DNA from: Patescibacteria group bacterium UBA1388
Lineage (GTDB): Bacteria > Patescibacteriota > Microgenomatia > UBA1400 > PJMF01
Direction of reading: 5' to 3'
DNA length: 58,883 nucleotides
Assembly (NCBI GenBank): GCA_002305355.1
Contig: DBQS01000036.1
Span: forward strand, 81,612 to 140,494
Shown piece after piece: positions 29,283 to 58,770 of this stretch. Made by a program: the position numbers and the translations under genes. A model generated the notes under the pieces. That model ran no database searches. It was not told the origin of the DNA and saw nothing but the letters and a program-made list of their open reading frames with translations. Numbering within the stretch: the first letter of the stretch is position 1; each line of letters starts with the position of its first letter.

Positions 29283-30359
29283 ATGCCAGATCAATCTAAA
29301 TCTGATTCCAATAAGAAAGTAGCCAAGGGTTCTGCAGAGAAAACCGGCAAAGCTAAGCCTGCAGCAGCGAAGAAGATTACCAAATCAACTCCAGCCAAGA
29401 CAGAGACTGCAGCTGCTCAGAAAGCTGCTCAGCCGGCAATCAGTAAGCAAACAGCAGCCAAGCAAACAGCCGCCAAGAAGACAGCTGATTCCTCAAAGGC
29501 AACAGCACCTGCAACCAAGAAATCTGCAACTGTCAAACAAAATTCTGCTTCAAAGACTAGTGAGATAAAAAAGCCAATATCAGAAAAAGTAACTCAACCC
29601 ATTCACACAAGTGCTCAAGTTAGAAAGCCGGTTACAAACGACGCGGAACCAGCCGCTTTCCAAGTTCCTGATTTTGACCTCAAAGAAATGTTAGAAATTG
29701 GGGCGCATTTTGGGCATCAGCAATCCAAGTGGGATCCTCGCATGGCACCTTTTATCTATATGGAAAAAGATGGTGTACACATTTTTGATTTAGTGAAAAC
29801 TGCTGCGCAACTCCAAAAAGCATATGCAAAAGCTTATCAACTGGGTCACGCGGGCAAAGTTTTAGTAGTAGTTGGTACCAAACGCCAAGCAAAAGATGTG
29901 GTAGAAAAAGTAGCCCAGGAGACTGGCGCGATGTATATTTCTTCTCGTTGGTTAGGAGGTTTTTTAACTAACTGGTCGCAAGTTCAAAAGTCACTCCAAA
30001 GAATGATCAAAATTGAACAAGGCTTGGCAAATGGAGAATTCGATAATTATACTAAGTATGAACGAGTTCAATTGGAAAAAGAACTCAGTCGTTTGGAAAG
30101 GTTCTTCGCAGGAGTTAAGGATTTGCAAGGTAGACCAGATGCTTTGTTTGTGATTGACATTAAGAAAGAGGATATTCCGGTGAAAGAAGCGAAAAGCATG
30201 GGTGTATTCACGATTGGGTTGGTTGATAGTAATGCCAATCCAGAAGATGTAGATATTGTGATTCCCGCTAATGATGATGGCAGAAAAAGTATTGAATATT
30301 TTGTTAACGCTGTGCTCAGTGGATATGCAGCTGGCAAAGCGGACCGGGGTAAGAAGTAA
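29283..30359 (+). CDS. rpsB: 30S ribosomal protein S2 with about 130-aa Lys/Ala/Thr-rich N-terminal extension
   Basis: The conserved S2 core starts at MLEIGAHFGHQQSKWDPRMAPFIY. The upstream 130 codons are open and contain repeats such as QTAAKQTAAKKTA. Confidence 0.9.
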   Translation: MPDQSKSDSNKKVAKGSAEKTGKAKPAAAKKITKSTPAKTETAAAQKAAQPAISKQTAAKQTAAKKTADSSKATAPATKKSATVKQNSASKTSEIKKPISEKVTQPIHTSAQVRKPVTNDAEPAAFQVPDFDLKEMLEIGAHFGHQQSKWDPRMAPFIYMEKDGVHIFDLVKTAAQLQKAYAKAYQLGHAGKVLVVVGTKRQAKDVVEKVAQETGAMYISSRWLGGFLTNWSQVQKSLQRMIKIEQGLANGEFDNYTKYERVQLEKELSRLERFFAGVKDLQGRPDALFVIDIKKEDIPVKEAKSMGVFTIGLVDSNANPEDVDIVIPANDDGRKSIEYFVNAVLSGYAAGKADRGKK

Positions 30360-35470: not shown

Positions 35471-35774
35471 ATCAATGATATATCCAGTAAACGTGTGATT
35501 AATTTCAAAAATCATGTGTTGAAAAGTAATTGTAATCAGGAGAGAAGGGGTGTTGCAAAAATATGCAAGAATAAATTGAGAGCAGGGGGGCGTAAAGATT
35601 TGGGGGGGGAAATTATGCCTGTGGTCAAGATAGTTTGTATGTAATCAAGATTACAATATTTATAAAATAAAATTGCAGTATAGAAAATTTTTGAAATGAT
35701 AAATTAATTATTAGATAAATTTGCAGAGTAGAGAGCGAAAAAATTTACAGAAACCCAGGCGGAGGAGGGGGTAT

Positions 35775-35833
35775 GATATAGTTAGATATAGTTAATAACT
35801 ATAGGACTGTGGATAACTGTGAAAACTATAGGA
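35775..35833. repeat. compound repeat module
   Basis: GATATAGTTA occurs twice in tandem (35775-35794). A 17-nt palindrome TATAGTTAATAACTATA spans 35787-35803. AACTATAGGA occurs twice (35797, 35824). ACTGTG occurs twice. Confidence 0.9.
35808..35816 (-). promoter_or_regulatory. perfect DnaA-box consensus (TTATCCACA)
   Basis: Plus strand TGTGGATAA is the reverse complement of TTATCCACA. One-mismatch copies are at 36409-36417 (TTTGGATAA) and 36674-36682 (TGTGGATAT). Function is unproven. Confidence 0.45.
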
Positions 35834-36416
35834 TTATCTAAGCTTAATATTTTTATTTAAACGATTAAACCAGACTAAATATGAGAGTATTTGCAGAGAC
35901 AAGAGCATGAAGGGAGTGATAACTAAACGGAGGGACGACTTCACAGAGAGCAATATATTCCAGATTATGCATCTGGAAGAGTGCGGGAATAAATAACCCG
36001 AAGCCAAGTTCCTGAGACTCTTACATATTTCTTGAGTGAGGTCGCGAGGAGCTGGTATGACAAGAACAGTAAGTAAGGAAGTGACAACAAATAAGTGCAA
36101 TGGGGACAAAGTTTGGCAGGAAATTAATTTTAATAACTAATTAAGAGATTACACGACTCCACTCTGTTGAATGTGTGACGCAGTGGAGCAATACATTCTA
36201 ATTTATAAAGTGTCGCACAATATTACTTTTGCGACGCAAACAAAATTATGCAGGTTGGAGTGATTAATCAATGACACCACGTGTCCCATCTTTTGGAGAT
36301 TCAGTTATCCGTATTTAGTAGTTTAAGTAATGCTTTTTATAGATTTCCCCTGCTTTTTCTCTCAAGTCGATATATTTCTCAACATACTGATTATTTTAGT
36401 TGCTAGTTTTTGGATA

Positions 36417-36440
36417 AACTTGATTTGACACCAACTTGAT
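36417..36440. repeat. AACTTGAT iteron pair, 16-bp period
   Basis: Exact 8-mers are at 36417 and 36433, with further exact copies at 37080 and 37259. The 14-mers AACTTGATTTGACA and AACTTGATGTGACA match 13/14. Confidence 0.85.
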
Positions 36441-37322
36441 TAATAATTACCAGGCAAGCACTTGAGGAAATAATAGGATCGTTTTTGGGAGCTTTTAGTT
36501 AAGTTTTAAGTGTGCAGATTGATAATTTAATGATTAGTAATCAAAAATTGGTATATTGAAGGAAATATTGATACATCAATTAATACATGAATTAAATGGA
36601 TGATGAATTGGTAGTTTAAAAAATAAAAAGCCGATTTTGGAGTGTTTGAGAAGCTTGGTTCCCAGGTTGGAAATGTGGATATATCAATCCAGACTGAATT
36701 AGCGGTCGTTCCAAGAAGTGAGGGTTAATTAGTTGCGTAGACTGTTGCTTGCAACGAGTCTGGATGTGACTACTTGTTTTTCCGAAAAGTATCATGTCTA
36801 AATTGCCGTGCTAGGAAGTATGGAGTGATGTTCATGGTTGCTGGTGCTTGCGCAAGTTGTATTGGTATTTAGTGATGCTGGTTGAAGATCTGGATCGATT
36901 GGGATGTGTAATTTCTTCTGGATGCCTGGAATCAATCGAGATAACTAGAATTAGCCGGACAACTAGATTTAGATGAGACAAGTTACATGTTACTCGAAGA
37001 TTGTGTATGATCAGTGACTGCAAGATCGATGACCGCCTCGATAGGAAGCTAGACTTTAGAAGCTCGACTAGAGATCGACAACTTGATGTGACAGCGGATT
37101 ATGATCGTGAGCGGATTGAGTGAATTAAGTGGATCACGATTGCCTGTGAATGATAATGGGCGGCAAATTTATTACAACCGGCATGTCGTCTGACAACTTA
37201 ATATACTATGTCAAATCTATACAAATTATATCAAAATAATAAAATTAATAACAAAAATAACTTGATATGTCCAGATTATAAATCAACAAGCAAAATTAGC
37301 ACTCCCCTCTCCCCTCTGCCAA

Positions 37323-37351
37323 TTGACCAATTTCCCGAAGCTGGCTATACT
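37323..37351 (+). promoter_or_regulatory. sigma70-type promoter for the xer gene
   Basis: TTGACC, a 17-nt spacer, then TATACT. It ends 19 nt before the ATG at 37371. Confidence 0.55.
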
Positions 37352-37370
37352 CAGTTAATTATCAGCTTCT

Positions 37371-38306
37371 ATGTCTACAACTACTCTCCCCCAGCCTGCT
37401 TTAATCAACTATTTAGAACATTTAGAAGTGGAACGCAATGTGAGTAGATTGACGATTCGCAATTACAGCCAGTATTTAAGACGGTTTATTGATTGGTACT
37501 TGGCACAAGGGATGACCGATCTGACACAACTTGATCAAGAGACAGTCAGAAAATACCGAGTTTACTTGGCGCGATATGTAGATGATGTAGGTCGGACACT
37601 CGGTAAAAAGACACAAAGTTATTACATCATTGCCCTCCGAGCGTGGTTAAAATGGTTGATTAAGCAAGACGCACCCGTTTTACATCCTGAGAAAATTGAT
37701 TTGCCCAAAGCAGAATCACAACACATGAAGTTTCTAGATAAAGACAAAATTGAATTATTGCTGGCCCAACCCCGCTTGTCATCAAAAACAGGTCTGCGGG
37801 ATAAAGCAATCCTGGAGGTGCTATTTTCCACTGGTTTACGGGTGAGTGAATTGGTATCAATCAACCGTGACCAAATTAATGAGGATACGCGTGAATTTGG
37901 AGTAATTGGCAAAGGTCGTCGACCACGGGTGGTGTTTTTGAGTGAGCGGGCGGCAGATTGGTTGCAGAAATGGCTTCGCTCTCGAAGTGATCATTGGAAT
38001 CCAGTCTTTATTCGTTTTGCTGGTAAGCGTGCCGAGCGAATGACTGATGGTGAGGAAATGCGACTGACTACTCGCTCGGTGCAAAGGTTGGTTGATAAGT
38101 ATTGCCGTAAGGCTAAATTGCCGATTAAAATTAGTCCGCACGGTGTGAGGCATAGCTTTGCTACCGATTTGTTGTCTAACGGCGCTGGTTTGCGCGATGT
38201 GCAAGAAATGTTGGGACATAAAAATGTGGCCACAACACAAATTTATACTCATGTGACCAAGCCACAACTCAAAAAAGTCCACTCTAAATTTCATACCGAT
38301 TTTTAA
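37371..38306 (+). CDS. tyrosine recombinase, XerC/XerD family
   Basis: N-terminal SAM-like domain (YLEHLEVERNVSRLTIRNYSQYLRRF). Catalytic residues appear in ...GLRVSEL..., HGVRHSFATDLL, and LGHKNVATTQIYTHV (Tyr). Confidence 0.88.
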   Translation: MSTTTLPQPALINYLEHLEVERNVSRLTIRNYSQYLRRFIDWYLAQGMTDLTQLDQETVRKYRVYLARYVDDVGRTLGKKTQSYYIIALRAWLKWLIKQDAPVLHPEKIDLPKAESQHMKFLDKDKIELLLAQPRLSSKTGLRDKAILEVLFSTGLRVSELVSINRDQINEDTREFGVIGKGRRPRVVFLSERAADWLQKWLRSRSDHWNPVFIRFAGKRAERMTDGEEMRLTTRSVQRLVDKYCRKAKLPIKISPHGVRHSFATDLLSNGAGLRDVQEMLGHKNVATTQIYTHVTKPQLKKVHSKFHTDF

Positions 38307-38655: not shown

Positions 38656-38729
38656 GGGCCTGTAGCGCAGTTGGTTAGCGCGTCTGTATGGCATACAGAA
38701 GGTCAGGGGTTCGAATCCCCTCAGGTCCA
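38656..38729 (+). tRNA. tRNA-Ala (anticodon GGC)
   Basis: Acceptor GGGCCTG/CAGGTCC with G3:U70. Anticodon loop is ATGGCAT. T-arm is AGGGG-TTCGAAT-CCCCT. CCA is not encoded. Confidence 0.9.
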
Positions 38730-39025
38730 CAAACGTCATTCTAAAGTTATAAAAATGGCAAGTAGGTTATTGGTTTTCTTGCCACATGTGATTTCATCTC
38801 AGTCATTTTACTACTTCAGCAAAATTATGGGATAACGTCTTACATCAATAATACTTGATACTAGCTTGGGAAGATCATGTTTATTTGATATATGGTGCAG
38901 TATTTTGGTTTTAGCCATCTAGTTTTTCGACATAAAAAACAAGAATCTTTTTTGATAGCAGATGATTATCAAAACAGGTGGTTATCACTCAGACTAAGAT
39001 CAGGTCTGCGGACTATTTAGCAAGT

Positions 39026-57901: not shown

Positions 57902-58135
57902 ATGTTAGAAGACTTCCCTATCCAGGCAGAAAAATATTTCTGGGGTGATGATCTAAATCAGCTTAATTGGCAAGATCATCACCGATATATTACCCAAACT
58001 TTGCTTGAAAAAGCAGATACTGAGGCAATCGCATGGCTTTTTAAGCAATCTTCAAAAGATCAACTCCTTAATGAACTGGAGATTCTAAAGCTTTCTCCAA
58101 AATCAAGAAATTTTTGGCAAATATATTTATCATGA
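57902..58135 (+). CDS. small protein paired with the nucleotidyltransferase (putative cognate partner/antitoxin)
   Basis: 77 aa. The pattern FWGDDLNQLNWQDHHRYITQTLLEKADTEAIAWLF is of the kind often encoded just upstream of AbiEii/DUF1814-type genes. It overlaps the next ORF by 22 nt. Confidence 0.5.
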   Translation: MLEDFPIQAEKYFWGDDLNQLNWQDHHRYITQTLLEKADTEAIAWLFKQSSKDQLLNELEILKLSPKSRNFWQIYLS

Positions 58136-58770
58136 CAAATGCTTTTTTCCCCCAAACTCTACCTGAAAAAACTGCCAGGCTATTAGAGCAAATTAGGCAG
58201 GCAAGACCATCGTTTATCAATTCTTTTTATCTTTCTGGTGGTACTGCATTGTCTTTGCAACTAGGTCATCGGGAATCTGAAGACCTAGATTTTTTTAGTC
58301 AAGACAGCTTTGATCCTAGAACACTCGAACCAGAACTATTCACGTTTGGCTCTTTAAGTCAAACAGAGCTGGCAAAAGGTACTCTTAATACATTTATAGA
58401 CAGTGTTAACTTGCAGTTTTTGGAATATCCATATGATCTGCTTGAGGCAACTATTGACTGGAATGGTATTAAATTGAGTTCGATTGCAGACATAGCTTGT
58501 ACCAAACTGCAAACAATTGGCATGAGAGGTAGTAAAAAAGATTTTATTGATCTTTACTTTTTGTTAGAGAAGTACTCTTTAAGTGAGTTATTCAAATTAG
58601 TCCAAAAAAAATACCCCCAAAGTGATTACAGTCAAATACATATCTTAAAGTCACTAGTCTATTTTGCAGACGCCCATCACCAGCCTATGCCAAGGATGCA
58701 TAAGGAAATAACTTGGGAAGAAGTGCAGCAAAAAATGATCGATGTGACCAAGTCATTTCGTTTTGAATAA
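58114..58770 (+). CDS. AbiEii/DUF1814-like nucleotidyltransferase (type IV toxin-antitoxin / abortive infection family)
   Basis: YLSGGTALSLQLGHRESEDLDFFS matches the GG-T-A-L...R-x-S-x-D-L/I-D-F nucleotidyltransferase motif of this family. Confidence 0.65.
   Translation: MANIFIMTNAFFPQTLPEKTARLLEQIRQARPSFINSFYLSGGTALSLQLGHRESEDLDFFSQDSFDPRTLEPELFTFGSLSQTELAKGTLNTFIDSVNLQFLEYPYDLLEATIDWNGIKLSSIADIACTKLQTIGMRGSKKDFIDLYFLLEKYSLSELFKLVQKKYPQSDYSQIHILKSLVYFADAHHQPMPRMHKEITWEEVQQKMIDVTKSFRFE

Follow-up and report, generated by a model that had tools for sequence, protein, structure and literature searches.

What function keeps about 1.9 kb of DNA free of genes directly upstream of a Xer recombinase gene in a patescibacterial chromosome? 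We analyzed this interval within its window, the whole stretch of 58.9 kb under study, and compared it with related loci in other genomes and with phage contigs in IMG/VR. The first-pass annotation had set several readings side by side, namely a terminus/dif region, an origin, a large structured RNA, and decayed genes; the evidence presented here indicates that the interval is probably the dif locus of a Patescibacteria (Microgenomatia/Pacebacteria) chromosome, built as a single-Xer module.

Results

A conserved noncoding locus upstream of xer

The interval and its main compositional features are as follows.

35471 to 37370, no strand assigned: noncoding locus bounded by a 255-aa membrane-protein gene on one side and xer on the other
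35585 to 35609, plus strand: G6 and G8 runs, within the left arm of the locus, which is purine-rich and G-skewed
35641 to 35720, no strand assigned: AT-rich block, 13.8% GC; the equivalent position is modestly AT-rich (66 to 67%) in the mean of 105 relatives
36290 to 36400, plus strand: pyrimidine/T-rich tract right of the 28-bp site described below, where purine content drops to 32 to 37% at +80 to +160 (mean of 105 loci)
36766 to 36993, no strand assigned: indel relative to the closest relative (L001), in which about 230 nt are missing; a lineage-specific insertion or deletion
38656 to 38730: tRNA-Ala(GGC), beyond xer

The earlier impression that about 1.9 kb here holds no credible ORF is borne out, as no ORF of at least 100 aa lies within 35471 to 37370 and all six frames have a negative codon log-likelihood. 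Related loci have an equivalent ORF-free gap of 0.5 to 2.7 kb around the same 28-bp site, which always lies inside it, and this gap is kept in more than 100 species. The 1.9-kb desert is a real, conserved noncoding locus around that site.

Several compositional features that had been reported for the locus were recovered: the AT-rich block (whose strength is specific to this window), the G runs (G6 at 35585 to 35590 and G8 at 35602 to 35609), the CTCCACT..AGTGGAG hairpin (located at about 36158 to 36189), and the convergence of the flanking genes on the locus. The families of exact short repeats, or iterons, did not hold up, since repeated k-mers of at least 10 nt are at chance level in a shuffle test; a repeat search together with TRF returned chance-level 11-mers and one two-copy 10-mer, and repeated 8-mers are slightly enriched in the locus (90, versus 55.6 ± 8.2 in shuffles). 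Local composition averaged over loci places purine-rich strands facing the 28-bp site from both sides.

A 28-bp dif-type site

36210 to 36237, plus strand: dif-type Xer site of 28 bp, GTGTCGCACAA-TATTAC-TTTTGCGACGC, with 11-bp arms and a 6-bp center

This palindromic site, the key feature of the locus, had been overlooked in the first-pass annotation.

The site is an 11-6-11 imperfect palindrome in which 8 to 10 of the 11 arm positions are complementary, and its family consensus is ATGTCGCACAA-TA(A/T)(A/T)AC-TTTTGCGACAT. It lies 1.16 kb upstream of the XerC/D-like gene, a distance that in relatives is 0.4 to 2.7 kb and rarely 4 to 6 kb. Copies of the site follow the pattern ATGTCGYACAAT-N5-TTTTRCGAC. 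The window holds a single copy, against a chance expectation of 0.03 matches. The site recurs upstream of xer, again in single copy, in 129 of 161 related loci (at most six mismatches), which are syntenic and therefore partly nonindependent samples. Among the first 80 loci, which reach up to 21 kb and have one site each, a copy with at most eight mismatches is present wherever more than about 1.2 kb of upstream sequence exists; the one exception, L080, is a locus titled as an archaeon, and the copy in L048 stands seven mismatches from the consensus.

Across 118 host and 102 phage sequences, the information content is at background beyond about 28 to 30 bp. Within the arms, the pairs at positions 7 and 22 are C-G (33), C-A (18), T-G (7), and T-A (7), and positions 9 and 20 are never complementary, an asymmetry that is conserved. 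Because the two arms vary independently, a DNA site is expected rather than an RNA stem, and on its sequence pattern the 28-mer fits a protein-bound DNA site with conserved asymmetry.

The adjacent recombinase

37323 to 37351, plus strand: promoter-like TTGACC-17 nt-TATACT upstream of xer, kept in L001
37371 to 38306, plus strand: Xer-family tyrosine recombinase of 311 aa, with profile and structure-database matches

The Xer protein scores 240 bits against the XerC profile (TIGR02224) and 236 bits against the XerD profile (TIGR02225), under both equivalog cutoffs; it carries the Phage_integrase and SAM-like N-terminal domains of Pfam, and its best PDB match is XerD (1a0p). It is encoded by the one recombinase gene at the locus, and its identity is 54 to 97% among the 80 best genome loci. 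In some lineages, variable cargo genes, an IS200-type transposase among them, separate the site from xer, as does an AP-endonuclease-family gene or other genes in distant lineages.

A polar G-rich motif converges on the site

35755 to 35771, plus strand: CCAGGC followed by the G-rich run GGAGGAGGGGG, a local copy of the ACCAGGC motif with a degenerate polar motif facing the site
36345 to 36354, plus strand: TTTCCCCTGC in the T-rich tract; its minus strand reads AGGGGA, facing back to the site
37302 to 37317, minus strand: CTCCCCTCTCCCCTCT, with two overlapping GGGGAG, the first exact right-side polar motifs facing the site

An unbiased polarity scan of the pooled loci showed that AGGGGAG points toward the site from both sides, with strand counts of about 185 to 187 versus 3 on the left and 23 versus about 178 to 193 on the right. 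A Shine-Dalgarno or coding-strand artifact is ruled out by a gene-strand control, in which the counts are 18:0 for minus-strand genes on the left and 9:47 for plus-strand genes on the right. The window shows the same pattern for GGGGAGA, whose counts are 9:1 left of the site and 1:6 right of it, the polarity changing between 35380 and 37302. The convergence reaches at least 10 kb on either side irrespective of gene strand, the bias of GGGGAG on the right being weaker beyond 10 kb (17:8), and the density of the core (A)GGGGAG(A) is highest in the first kilobase from the site; an increase in KOPS density toward dif is a described hallmark (PMC5357621).

In these sequence terms the AGGGGAG motif is KOPS-like, and a strand-independent motif that converges over at least 10 kb is hard to explain without a directional chromosomal translocase. 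By analogy with KOPS and SRS, (A)GGGGAG(A) would most likely steer an FtsK-type translocase to the site. An FtsK Walker-A signature was found in none of the 161 loci, which cover a small part of each genome; ftsK is documented in Saccharibacteria TM7x (PMC10768705).

Strand bias does not switch at the site

GC skew was computed at 4-fold sites and split by gene strand. In all described systems that we are aware of, the polarity of translocase-orienting motifs and mutational strand bias coincide. The strand-specific component of the skew in the window is +0.21 on both sides of the site, from −36 to +22.7 kb, and within ±10 kb it is positive in all measurable relatives (20 of 20 on the left and 36 of 36 on the right, from 45 loci including the window). 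Beyond the right edge of the window the skew was measured in relatives, and no flip was found at +21 to +31 kb in five further genomes or by +35.7 kb in CAZKVV010000001.1. Known dif sites are displaced from the skew shift point by 0 to 1.4% of the genome length (1 standard deviation), with outliers below 3% (PMC3025954); on this scale of about 3% of genome length, the site does not coincide with a skew shift point anywhere within the measured −36 to +36 kb. We put at about even the chances that dif lies more than 3% of the genome length from the skew switch, with dimer resolution uncoupled from the meeting of replication forks.

Conserved motifs flank the site

35774 to 35791, plus strand: TGATATAGTTAGATATAG, a copy of the direct-repeat motif TGATATAGTTTGATA (period, 10 bp), lying 436 nt to the left of the site
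35799 to 35834, plus strand: CTATAGGAC-TGTGGATAAC-TGTGAAAAC-TATAGGAT, a DnaA-box-like element between TATAGGA and GTGAAAA motifs
35993 to 36003, plus strand: ATAACCCGAAG, the local instance of the conserved AAAACCCGAA(T) motif, lying 217 nt to the left of the site
36451 to 36760, plus strand: block B, about 94% identical to L001, where flanking coding DNA is 76 to 84% identical
36626 to 36640: widely conserved element AAAAGCCGATTTTGG within block B
36676 to 36686: half-palindrome TGGATATATCA within block B
36994 to 37200, plus strand: block C, about 90 to 97% identical to L001 over 37079 to 37170
37140 to 37172: terminator-like hairpin at the end of block C

The sole real repeat in the locus, a 10-bp tandem of two GATATAGTTA copies at 35775 to 35794 found by TRF, is part of a motif that is conserved between species: 83 of 107 loci contain the 8-mer TGATATAG (2 expected), always on the same strand and at a median position of −417, and the direct repeats stand beside the DnaA box in one to three copies per locus. 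The perfect DnaA box that had been reported is indeed present on the minus strand (TTATCCACA, 35808 to 35816). Between −1000 and −100 of the site, 118 DnaA boxes have this orientation, about one per locus, versus 5 in the other, and the sequence, orientation, and distance of the box from the site are conserved in about 100 species; window-wide, DnaA boxes with at most one mismatch are not enriched (16 versus 17.3 expected). A hairpin formed by TGTGGATAACT...AGTTATAGGAC was rejected, as a common T-to-A change in the box is uncompensated. Closer to the site, AAAACCCGAA was found in 68 of 107 loci (0.9 expected) at a median of −204 (interquartile range, −227 to −191), and both it and the TGATATAGTTTGATA-type motifs are invariably on one strand, on the left side of the core. 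The AAAAGCCG element is inverted in one subgroup of relatives. The conserved flanking motifs, including TGATATAGTTTGATA, AAAACCCGAAT, and the AAAAGCCG/TTGATATATCAA element, hold near-fixed spacing and strand relative to the site. This motif field, which includes the one oriented DnaA box, suggests accessory factors for Xer recombination or for the organization of the terminus region in these reduced genomes.

The idea of a large structured RNA found no support. Rfam searches at gathering thresholds and at E values up to 5 returned tRNAs alone for the window and seven relatives, leaving the locus itself empty; RNAalifold gave no plus-strand consensus structure from −235 to +45; folding z-scores were not significant (−1.69, +0.48 for block C, and −1.11); and the palindrome arms show no covariation. 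RNase P, tmRNA, and SRP were considered on resemblances such as that of AACCCGAA to CR-V and set aside, since the partner motifs are missing and Rfam gives no signal.

Tailed phages carry the site

The arm pattern is matched exactly by 113 IMG/VR contigs, of which 112 lack a xer homologue and 105 have the site in an intergenic position. Five sampled contigs are tailed phages that encode a terminase, portal, major head protein, and primase, and the tailed-phage genomes with the site mimic are about 40 to 50 kb long. The host Xer presumably serves such phages, either for integration at dif or for the resolution of phage multimers.

None of the first 80 loci contains an integrated phage with a site at each end. 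Integration of a phage at the site was also rejected for nine long-interval loci (including L030, L018, L003, L051, and L061), in which the ORFs between dif and xer have no matches to the 113 phage contigs. A mobile-element scar was rejected as well, as the similarity between the locus and the phage contigs is confined to the 28-mer and the window holds no further copies of the desert.

Discussion

Our analyses indicate that the gene desert upstream of xer is probably a chromosomal dif locus. Of the terminus/dif reading in the first-pass annotation, the dif part is supported by the bounded 11-6-11 site next to xer in 129 loci, the converging strand-independent motif, and the phage mimics; the terminus part finds no support in composition, as neither the sign nor the size of the 4-fold-site skew differs between the two sides from −36 to +36 kb. 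Two monomers of the adjacent Xer would bind the 28-bp site, and recombination between two site copies would resolve chromosome dimers, so that site and Xer may form a single-recombinase module comparable to XerS/difSL and XerH/difH. The TGATATAGTTTGATA repeats, the one oriented DnaA-box-like element, and AAAACCCGAA on the left, and the T-rich tract, the AAAAGCCG element with its TTGATATATCAA-type palindrome, and the xer promoter on the right, are predicted to comprise binding sites of accessory or architectural proteins together with regulatory signals. The remaining ~1.8 kb would stay noncoding because these DNA-level elements sit at fixed spacing from the site.

The conserved DnaA box and the other flanking motifs are left unaccounted for by a dif function. 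In an origin reading, the locus is or contains an origin served by DnaA and an iteron-binding factor, with replication proceeding unidirectionally so that ori, ter, and dif coincide. The single DnaA box conserved in sequence, orientation, and distance across about 100 species, the one to three direct repeats beside it, the AT-rich block of the window, and the T-rich tract at +80 to +160 would all suit such an origin, and an even strand bias combined with a flipping polar motif is what would be expected of a circle with dif beside ori. However, each locus has one canonical box and no cluster; no initiator gene adjoins the locus, dnaA and dnaN are absent from −36 to +22 kb of the window, and no DnaA signature occurs within ±10 kb in the first 80 relatives; the averaged AT profile of 105 relatives is raised modestly; there is no skew switch; and the genes converge instead of diverging, with the essential genes gyrA and gyrB on the right head-on to such replication. 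The bacterial norm of bidirectional replication from an origin mostly near dnaA (PMC7111523) also counts against this reading, and we consider it very unlikely; the origin that had been suggested earlier is not supported. Poorer still is the case for a cluster of decayed genes or a scar left by a degraded mobile element, a reading that could appeal to the AP-endonuclease-family or other genes found between site and xer in distant lineages and to the ~230-nt indel relative to L001. A tblastn search with the AP-endonuclease-family gene at E values up to 10 found nothing in the window or in the other Pacebacteria intervals, no coding signal is present in a gap that is ORF-free in more than 100 species, and the phage contigs resemble the locus in the 28-mer alone; with no gene remnant, and with parts of the desert more conserved than coding DNA, the decayed genes proposed earlier are unsupported and scarcely credible.

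Two further explanations accept the 28-mer as a DNA site. Blocks B and C (36451 to 37200) might encode one or more small noncoding RNAs in addition to it, given that they are 90 to 97% identical to L001 where coding DNA is 76 to 84% identical, that the arms of a short hairpin following the AAAAGCCG element co-change in several species (GAGGC/GCCTC, AAGCC/GGCTT, and AAGCT/AGCTT), that this element is found in both orientations, as a self-contained unit might be, and that a terminator-like hairpin lies at 37140 to 37172. We regard this as unlikely, as Rfam gives no match, folding gives z-scores of −1.69 and +0.48, block B can be aligned over no more than about 45 nt in relatives besides L001, no promoter is established for either block, and the pairing of the hairpin is ambiguous between two registers. 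It is also unlikely, and slightly more so, that the 28-mer is a Xer site used mainly for another purpose, whether phage or mobile-element attachment or a cer/psi-like role independent of FtsK and of position. The distance of at least 36 kb to any skew switch, the fixed-spacing motifs that, like the accessory regions of cer/psi, flank the core on one side, the more than 100 phages that carry the core alone, and the variable cargo between site and xer in some lineages, including the IS200-type transposase, are compatible with such a role. The strand-independent convergence of the polar motif over at least 10 kb on each side speaks against it, as do a recombinase that is 54 to 97% identical and syntenic across the class, as a housekeeping function would be, and the lack of any prophage between two copies of the site in the first 80 loci. 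A dif site for chromosome dimer resolution remains our preferred reading.

Comparison with known systems places this dif locus among, and apart from, those described. XerS/difSL of streptococci and lactococci and XerH/difH of Helicobacter and Campylobacter likewise link one Xer to its site, with imperfect inverted arms, a short center, and polar motifs facing the site, and a position of dif next to the recombinase gene is a described hallmark of single-recombinase systems (PMC5357621). The Microgenomatia Xer, in contrast, is a short XerC/D-like protein of 311 aa that scores 124 bits against XerS, where the cutoff is 267, and matches XerH weakly (PDB 5jjv; E value, 3e-11); its site is 28 bp in an 11-6-11 arrangement and not 31 bp, lies inside a conserved noncoding module, and is not at a skew switch. 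Classical XerCD/dif sites are also 28 bp, and the site shares 21 of 28 positions with dif of H. influenzae and 16 to 17 of 28 with those of E. coli and B. subtilis, but the Microgenomatia locus has one recombinase gene and a polarity that does not follow GC skew across at least ±36 kb. The KOPS of E. coli and SRS of B. subtilis show the same G-rich converging polarity, which here exceeds 90% near the site, although the motif is (A)GGGGAG(A) and not GGGNAGGG or GAGAAGGG.

The phage copies have parallels too. XerL/dif of Legionellales is likewise a lineage-specific single-recombinase system that dif mimics on mobile elements reveal or corroborate, having been found through a mobile element with such a mimic (PMC9765430), whereas the mimics here are on tailed-phage genomes of about 40 to 50 kb. 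IMEX such as CTXphi, VGJphi, TLCphi, and the gonococcal island are also mobile genomes with a dif-like site, and they lack an integrase, as 112 of the 113 phage contigs lack a xer homologue; the phage IMEX that we found described are filamentous or double-jelly-roll, while these phages are tailed. No two-site integrated copy occurs in the first 80 loci, and the site of these phages could instead serve an episomal prophage in resolving its multimers. The plasmid sites cer and psi combine a core Xer site with conserved protein-binding motifs at a fixed distance on one side. The motifs here also keep a fixed distance on one side of the core and may bind proteins, but their field is longer (~200 to 480 bp) and chromosomal. 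As far as we know, the flanking motifs resemble no ArgR, PepA, or ArcA boxes.

The literature that we searched contains no dif site, Xer target, or KOPS-like motif for bacteria of the candidate phyla radiation, and we read the locus as a single-Xer dif system with unusual features that is new for these bacteria. The 28-mer and AGGGGAG together provide a landmark by which Microgenomatia MAG assemblies can be oriented and checked, and a copy of the site is a direct signal for assigning hosts to more than 100 uncultivated tailed phages. The locus can also serve as a test case, one where the polarity that would orient a translocase and the mutational strand bias are at odds over at least 70 kb. 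If the uncoupling is true, it touches the question of whether a chromosome must resolve dimers where its replication terminates, and a whole class of tailed phages would be exploiting such an uncoupled dif site through the host Xer.

A noncoding region beside a Xer recombinase gene

The first-pass annotation reported no credible ORF in the 1.9-kb desert (35471-37370) between a gene for a 255-aa membrane protein and xer, and this was upheld; no ORF there reaches 100 aa, and the codon-usage log-likelihood, under a model trained on 32 window genes, is negative in all six frames and clearly positive in the flanking genes. The landmarks recorded in and beside the desert were also recovered:

35585-35590 and 35602-35609: G6 and G8 runs
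35641-35720: AT-rich block, 13.8% GC
35808-35816, minus strand: perfect DnaA box
near 36158-36189: small hairpin
37371-38306: xer
38656-38730: tRNA-Ala(GGC)

The exact short repeat families also described there proved weak, with repeated k-mers of at least 10 nt at chance frequency and 8-mers modestly enriched (90 versus 55.6 ± 8.2 in shuffles). DnaA boxes are not enriched across the whole window (16 found, 17.3 expected). Pfam annotation gives the gene order tgt, a YebC-family gene, the 255-aa membrane protein gene, the desert, xer, and tRNA-Ala, followed by genes for surface proteins, gyrA, ppa, gyrB, and holB on the minus strand and then by type IV pilus genes; this is an ordinary housekeeping set, with neither dnaA nor dnaN in the window. 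The ORF for ribosomal protein S2 (29283-30359, 358 aa) has its Ribosomal_S2 domain confined to residues 136 to 346, and that for L31 (4394-4825, 143 aa) has its domain at residues 1 to 63, the excess reflecting either over-called starts or lineage-specific ribosomal protein extensions. An AbiEii-type toxin gene lies at the right end of the window (58114-58770); a near-identical strain carries two AbiEii/DUF6922 pairs at the matching position (L274 12610-14435), and several assemblies of the window organism end here, which suggests a variable region.

For comparison, the Xer protein was used as a query to collect 80 loci from species-representative genomes (54 to 97% identity), whose titles name Pacebacteria, Woesebacteria, Gottesmanbacteria, Levybacteria, Shapirobacteria, or simply a Patescibacteria group; 80 metagenome loci added later brought the total to 161. 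Genes in relatives were modeled by long-ORF proxies, and related loci share kinship and synteny, so counts across them are not independent events. Among the first 80 loci, many metagenome-assembled genomes bear the title "uncultured Pseudomonadales" or "Gammaproteobacteria"; the title of CP011212.1 gives candidate division TM6, and that of another contig gives Bathyarchaeia. Mislabeled taxonomy or mis-binning in the public records is the apparent cause.

A 28-bp dif-type site upstream of xer

A blastn comparison of the desert with the 80 loci left one short piece, 36211-36260, conserved in more than 20 species, and this piece overlaps an imperfect palindrome of 11-6-11 architecture:

36210-36237: 28-bp dif-type site, GTGTCGCACAA-TATTAC-TTTTGCGACGC

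The window holds a single copy of the site, against a chance expectation of 0.03 matches, and 21 of its 28 positions agree with Haemophilus influenzae dif. A search of the first 80 loci allowing up to 8 mismatches gave a single copy wherever more than about 1.2 kb precedes xer, except in one locus whose record title names an archaeon (L080); loci without the site mostly have 0 to 0.7 kb of upstream DNA. It usually lies 0.4 to 2.7 kb, and rarely 4 to 6 kb, from xer. At up to 6 mismatches it is found in 129 of 161 loci, a tally that misses the L048 copy, which has 7 mismatches to the consensus. Information content falls to background beyond about 28 to 30 bp (118 distinct host and 102 phage sequences).

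Among 65 distinct sites, positions 7 and 22 occur as C-G (33), C-A (18), T-G (7), and T-A (7), and positions 2 and 27 behave in the same way, the arms showing no covariation. Such independent variation is a mark of two putative protein-bound half-sites and not of an RNA stem. Positions 9 and 20 are never complementary, and the site thus has a conserved asymmetry. In five loci (L041, L045, L046, L052, and L053) the 28-mer core alone, including its asymmetric center, is flipped relative to xer, with every flanking motif in its usual orientation and spacing, which suggests local inversion of the core itself. The window Xer scores 240 bits against XerC and 236 bits against XerD, under both equivalog cutoffs, and its closest solved structure is XerD.

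A conserved field of flanking motifs

The site invariably lies within an ORF-free gap; on its left, most of the first 80 loci have about 350 to 1,000 nt without an ORF of at least 100 aa. Motifs to the left occupy a single strand at near-fixed distances from the site.

Conserved elements around the site (window coordinates; distances counted from the site)
35774-35791: TGATATAGTTTGATA motif; 8-mer TGATATAG in 83 of 107 loci (2 expected), 1 to 3 copies, median -417
35808-35817: DnaA-box-like (T)TGTGGA(T/A)AAC, about one per locus
35993-36003: AAAACCCGAA(T) motif, 68 of 107 loci (0.9 expected), median -204
left of site: TTATAGGAC and GTGAAAA motifs
about +95 to +125: T-rich tract
36626-36640: AAAAGCCGnTTTTGrGCC with a short hairpin, +160 to +440 in at least 48 loci
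36676-36686: TTGATATATCAA-type palindrome, often following the hairpin element
preceding xer: promoter-like TTGACC-17-TATACT

Between -1000 and -100, 118 DnaA-box-like elements have the conserved orientation and 5 the opposite one. Coding DNA of the window is 76 to 84% identical to that of its closest relative, L001, and three parts of the desert exceed this level (35763-35850, about 90%; 36451-36760, about 94%; 37079-37170, about 93%); some 230 nt (36766-36993) are missing in L001. We read the conserved flanking motifs as putative protein-binding and regulatory DNA. The half-site TGATAT recurs on both flanks, directly repeated to the left and palindromic to the right, an arrangement that, speculatively, would suit a single factor bound on both sides of the site. 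In one subgroup (L027, L032, L034, L036, and L037) the AAAAGCCG hairpin element and the TTGATATATCAA palindrome are inverted at about +300 to +400, as though the two formed one self-contained unit, either invertible or bidirectional.

A large structured RNA and a decayed gene cluster had both been raised as explanations of this DNA. Rfam gave no match here and none in seven further loci, RNAalifold found no plus-strand consensus structure for the segment from -235 to +45, folding z-scores were -1.69, +0.48, and -1.11, and paired changes are limited to the short hairpin of block B (36451-36760); a large structured RNA is not supported. Between the site and xer, Gottesmanbacteria-like lineages carry a conserved 305-aa AP_endonuc_2 gene, encoded on the other strand, of which tblastn found no trace in the window, a result that argues against decay. 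Other lineages hold unrelated cargo there, including lysyl-oxidase-like, AstE/AspA-like, IS200-type transposase, and PMT-like genes. The occupied intervals include L018 6036-10001, L030 4014-10001, L064 6942-8497, and L061 3028-5745, and DNA to the right of the site appears to tolerate insertions.

A polar motif converging on the site

An unbiased scan of 7- and 8-mers for words facing the site from both sides (119 nonredundant loci, 1.56 Mb) placed AGGGGAG far ahead, with 185 plus and 3 minus occurrences on the left and 23 plus and 178 minus on the right. Because genes converge here too, counts were split by gene strand.

AGGGGAG occurrences by side and gene strand
Left, plus-strand genes: 112 plus, 1 minus
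Left, minus-strand genes: 18 plus, 0 minus
Left, intergenic: 57 plus, 2 minus
Right, plus-strand genes: 9 plus, 47 minus
Right, minus-strand genes: 3 plus, 80 minus
Right, intergenic: 11 plus, 66 minus

Polarity is thus set by the side of the site and not by gene strand. It extends at least 10 kb both ways, with the highest density in the first kilobase, and the extended consensus is roughly rrrnAGGGGAGAg. Within the window GGGGAGA runs 9:1 left of the site and 1:6 right of it, switching between 35380 and 37302, i.e., within the desert. Averaged composition likewise has purine-rich strands facing the site from both sides (plus-strand purine content of 54 to 58% at -700 to -100 and 32 to 37% at +80 to +160). 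This polar motif explains the G-rich runs seen in the first reading. KOPS/SRS-type sequences orient FtsK-family translocases to dif (PMC5357621), and the polarity of AGGGGAG is, on sequence grounds, the apparent signature of such sequences, which would steer an FtsK-family translocase to the site; ftsK itself is known solely from one Saccharibacteria genome (PMC10768705).

Strand bias and replication

GC skew at 4-fold degenerate sites was measured relative to the xer strand.

4-fold GC skew in the window
Left, plus-strand genes: +0.12
Left, minus-strand genes: +0.30
Right, plus-strand genes: +0.095
Right, minus-strand genes: +0.32

These values yield a strand-specific component of +0.21, left and right alike, whereas a terminus or origin at the site requires mirror values. 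The component is positive in all measurable relatives (20 of 20 left, 36 of 36 right; means, 0.19 and 0.19), and G/T-rich words favor one and the same strand on both sides. In five more genomes, reached via PilC homologues, minus-strand genes 21 to 31 kb right of the site give +0.34, and in CAZKVV010000001.1 (site at record position 151,398) the values from beyond +26 kb to +35.7 kb are +0.385 for minus-strand and -0.17 for plus-strand genes. Across the window and its relatives, no switch in mutational strand bias was found from -36 kb to +36 kb. In the window (1-58883) and loci L278 to L284 the xer strand is G-rich at 4-fold sites in genes of both strands, coding-strand skew being about -0.3 to -0.4 for minus-strand and about 0 to +0.1 for plus-strand genes; if the G-rich strand is the leading one, the genes in some 12 kb to the right of xer, gyrA and gyrB among them, would be head-on to replication.

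Motif polarity and gene orientation point to convergence at the site; mutational bias points to forks that cross it without stopping. Of the proposed terminus/dif region, the dif half is supported, with a 28-mer beside xer and a converging motif, and the terminus half is not supported by composition, given the lack of a strand-bias switch over this span. The suggested origin is not supported in its classical form, with converging genes, a single DnaA box per locus, no nearby dnaA, and no skew switch. Published dif sites lie 0 to 1.39% of genome length from the skew shift point (1 standard deviation), with outliers below 3% (PMC3025954), and 36 kb is 2.6 to 4.2% of genomes of about 0.85 to 1.4 Mb. 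The putative dif may lie unusually distant from where forks meet, for example after an ancient origin shift, with selection holding the polar motifs centered on dif, or the skew may have a nonreplicative cause. A third possibility, of low prior probability, is unidirectional replication from an origin beside dif, which would also account for the direct repeats and the DnaA box.

Copies of the site in tailed phages

Scanning IMG/VR with the arm pattern GTCGYACAAT-N5-TTTTRCGAC recovered 113 viral contigs (L081 to L193), mostly of 4 to 52 kb, in which the site is intergenic in 105 cases (e.g., L081 3471-3494 and L095 7329-7352). A xer homologue is absent from 112 of the 113, as are the host flanking motifs. 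Genes near the site in five sampled contigs encode the terminase large subunit, portal/adaptor, major head protein, primase, and helicase, and in several contigs the site is just upstream of the packaging (terminase) genes; the sampled contigs are tailed phages. The central 6 bp of the site vary more in the viral contigs (TATATC, TATACA, TATGTA) than in hosts (TAATAC, TATAAC). The host-site copy is the sole recognizable recombination feature of these contigs in an integrase search that covered the Xer family only, and no prophage with the site at both ends was found in the first 80 host loci. We consider these contigs candidate Xer-exploiting tailed phages of Patescibacteria, and the site copy fits possible exploitation of host Xer for IMEX-like integration or multimer resolution. 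The descriptions of phage IMEX that we found concern filamentous or double-jelly-roll phages, in contrast to the tailed phages here.

Conclusions

We explain the core of the locus as a putative new single-recombinase dif/Xer locus of Microgenomatia with a KOPS-like motif, although recombination at the site, translocase steering, and phage integration are steps that we infer. In the literature that we searched, neither dif nor Xer targets nor KOPS had been described for Patescibacteria. This dif/Xer locus sits within a conserved field of noncoding motifs, and many tailed phages carry a mimic of the site; the uncoupling of strand bias from the site, together with the unexplained flanking motifs, makes the locus more than a routine new member.
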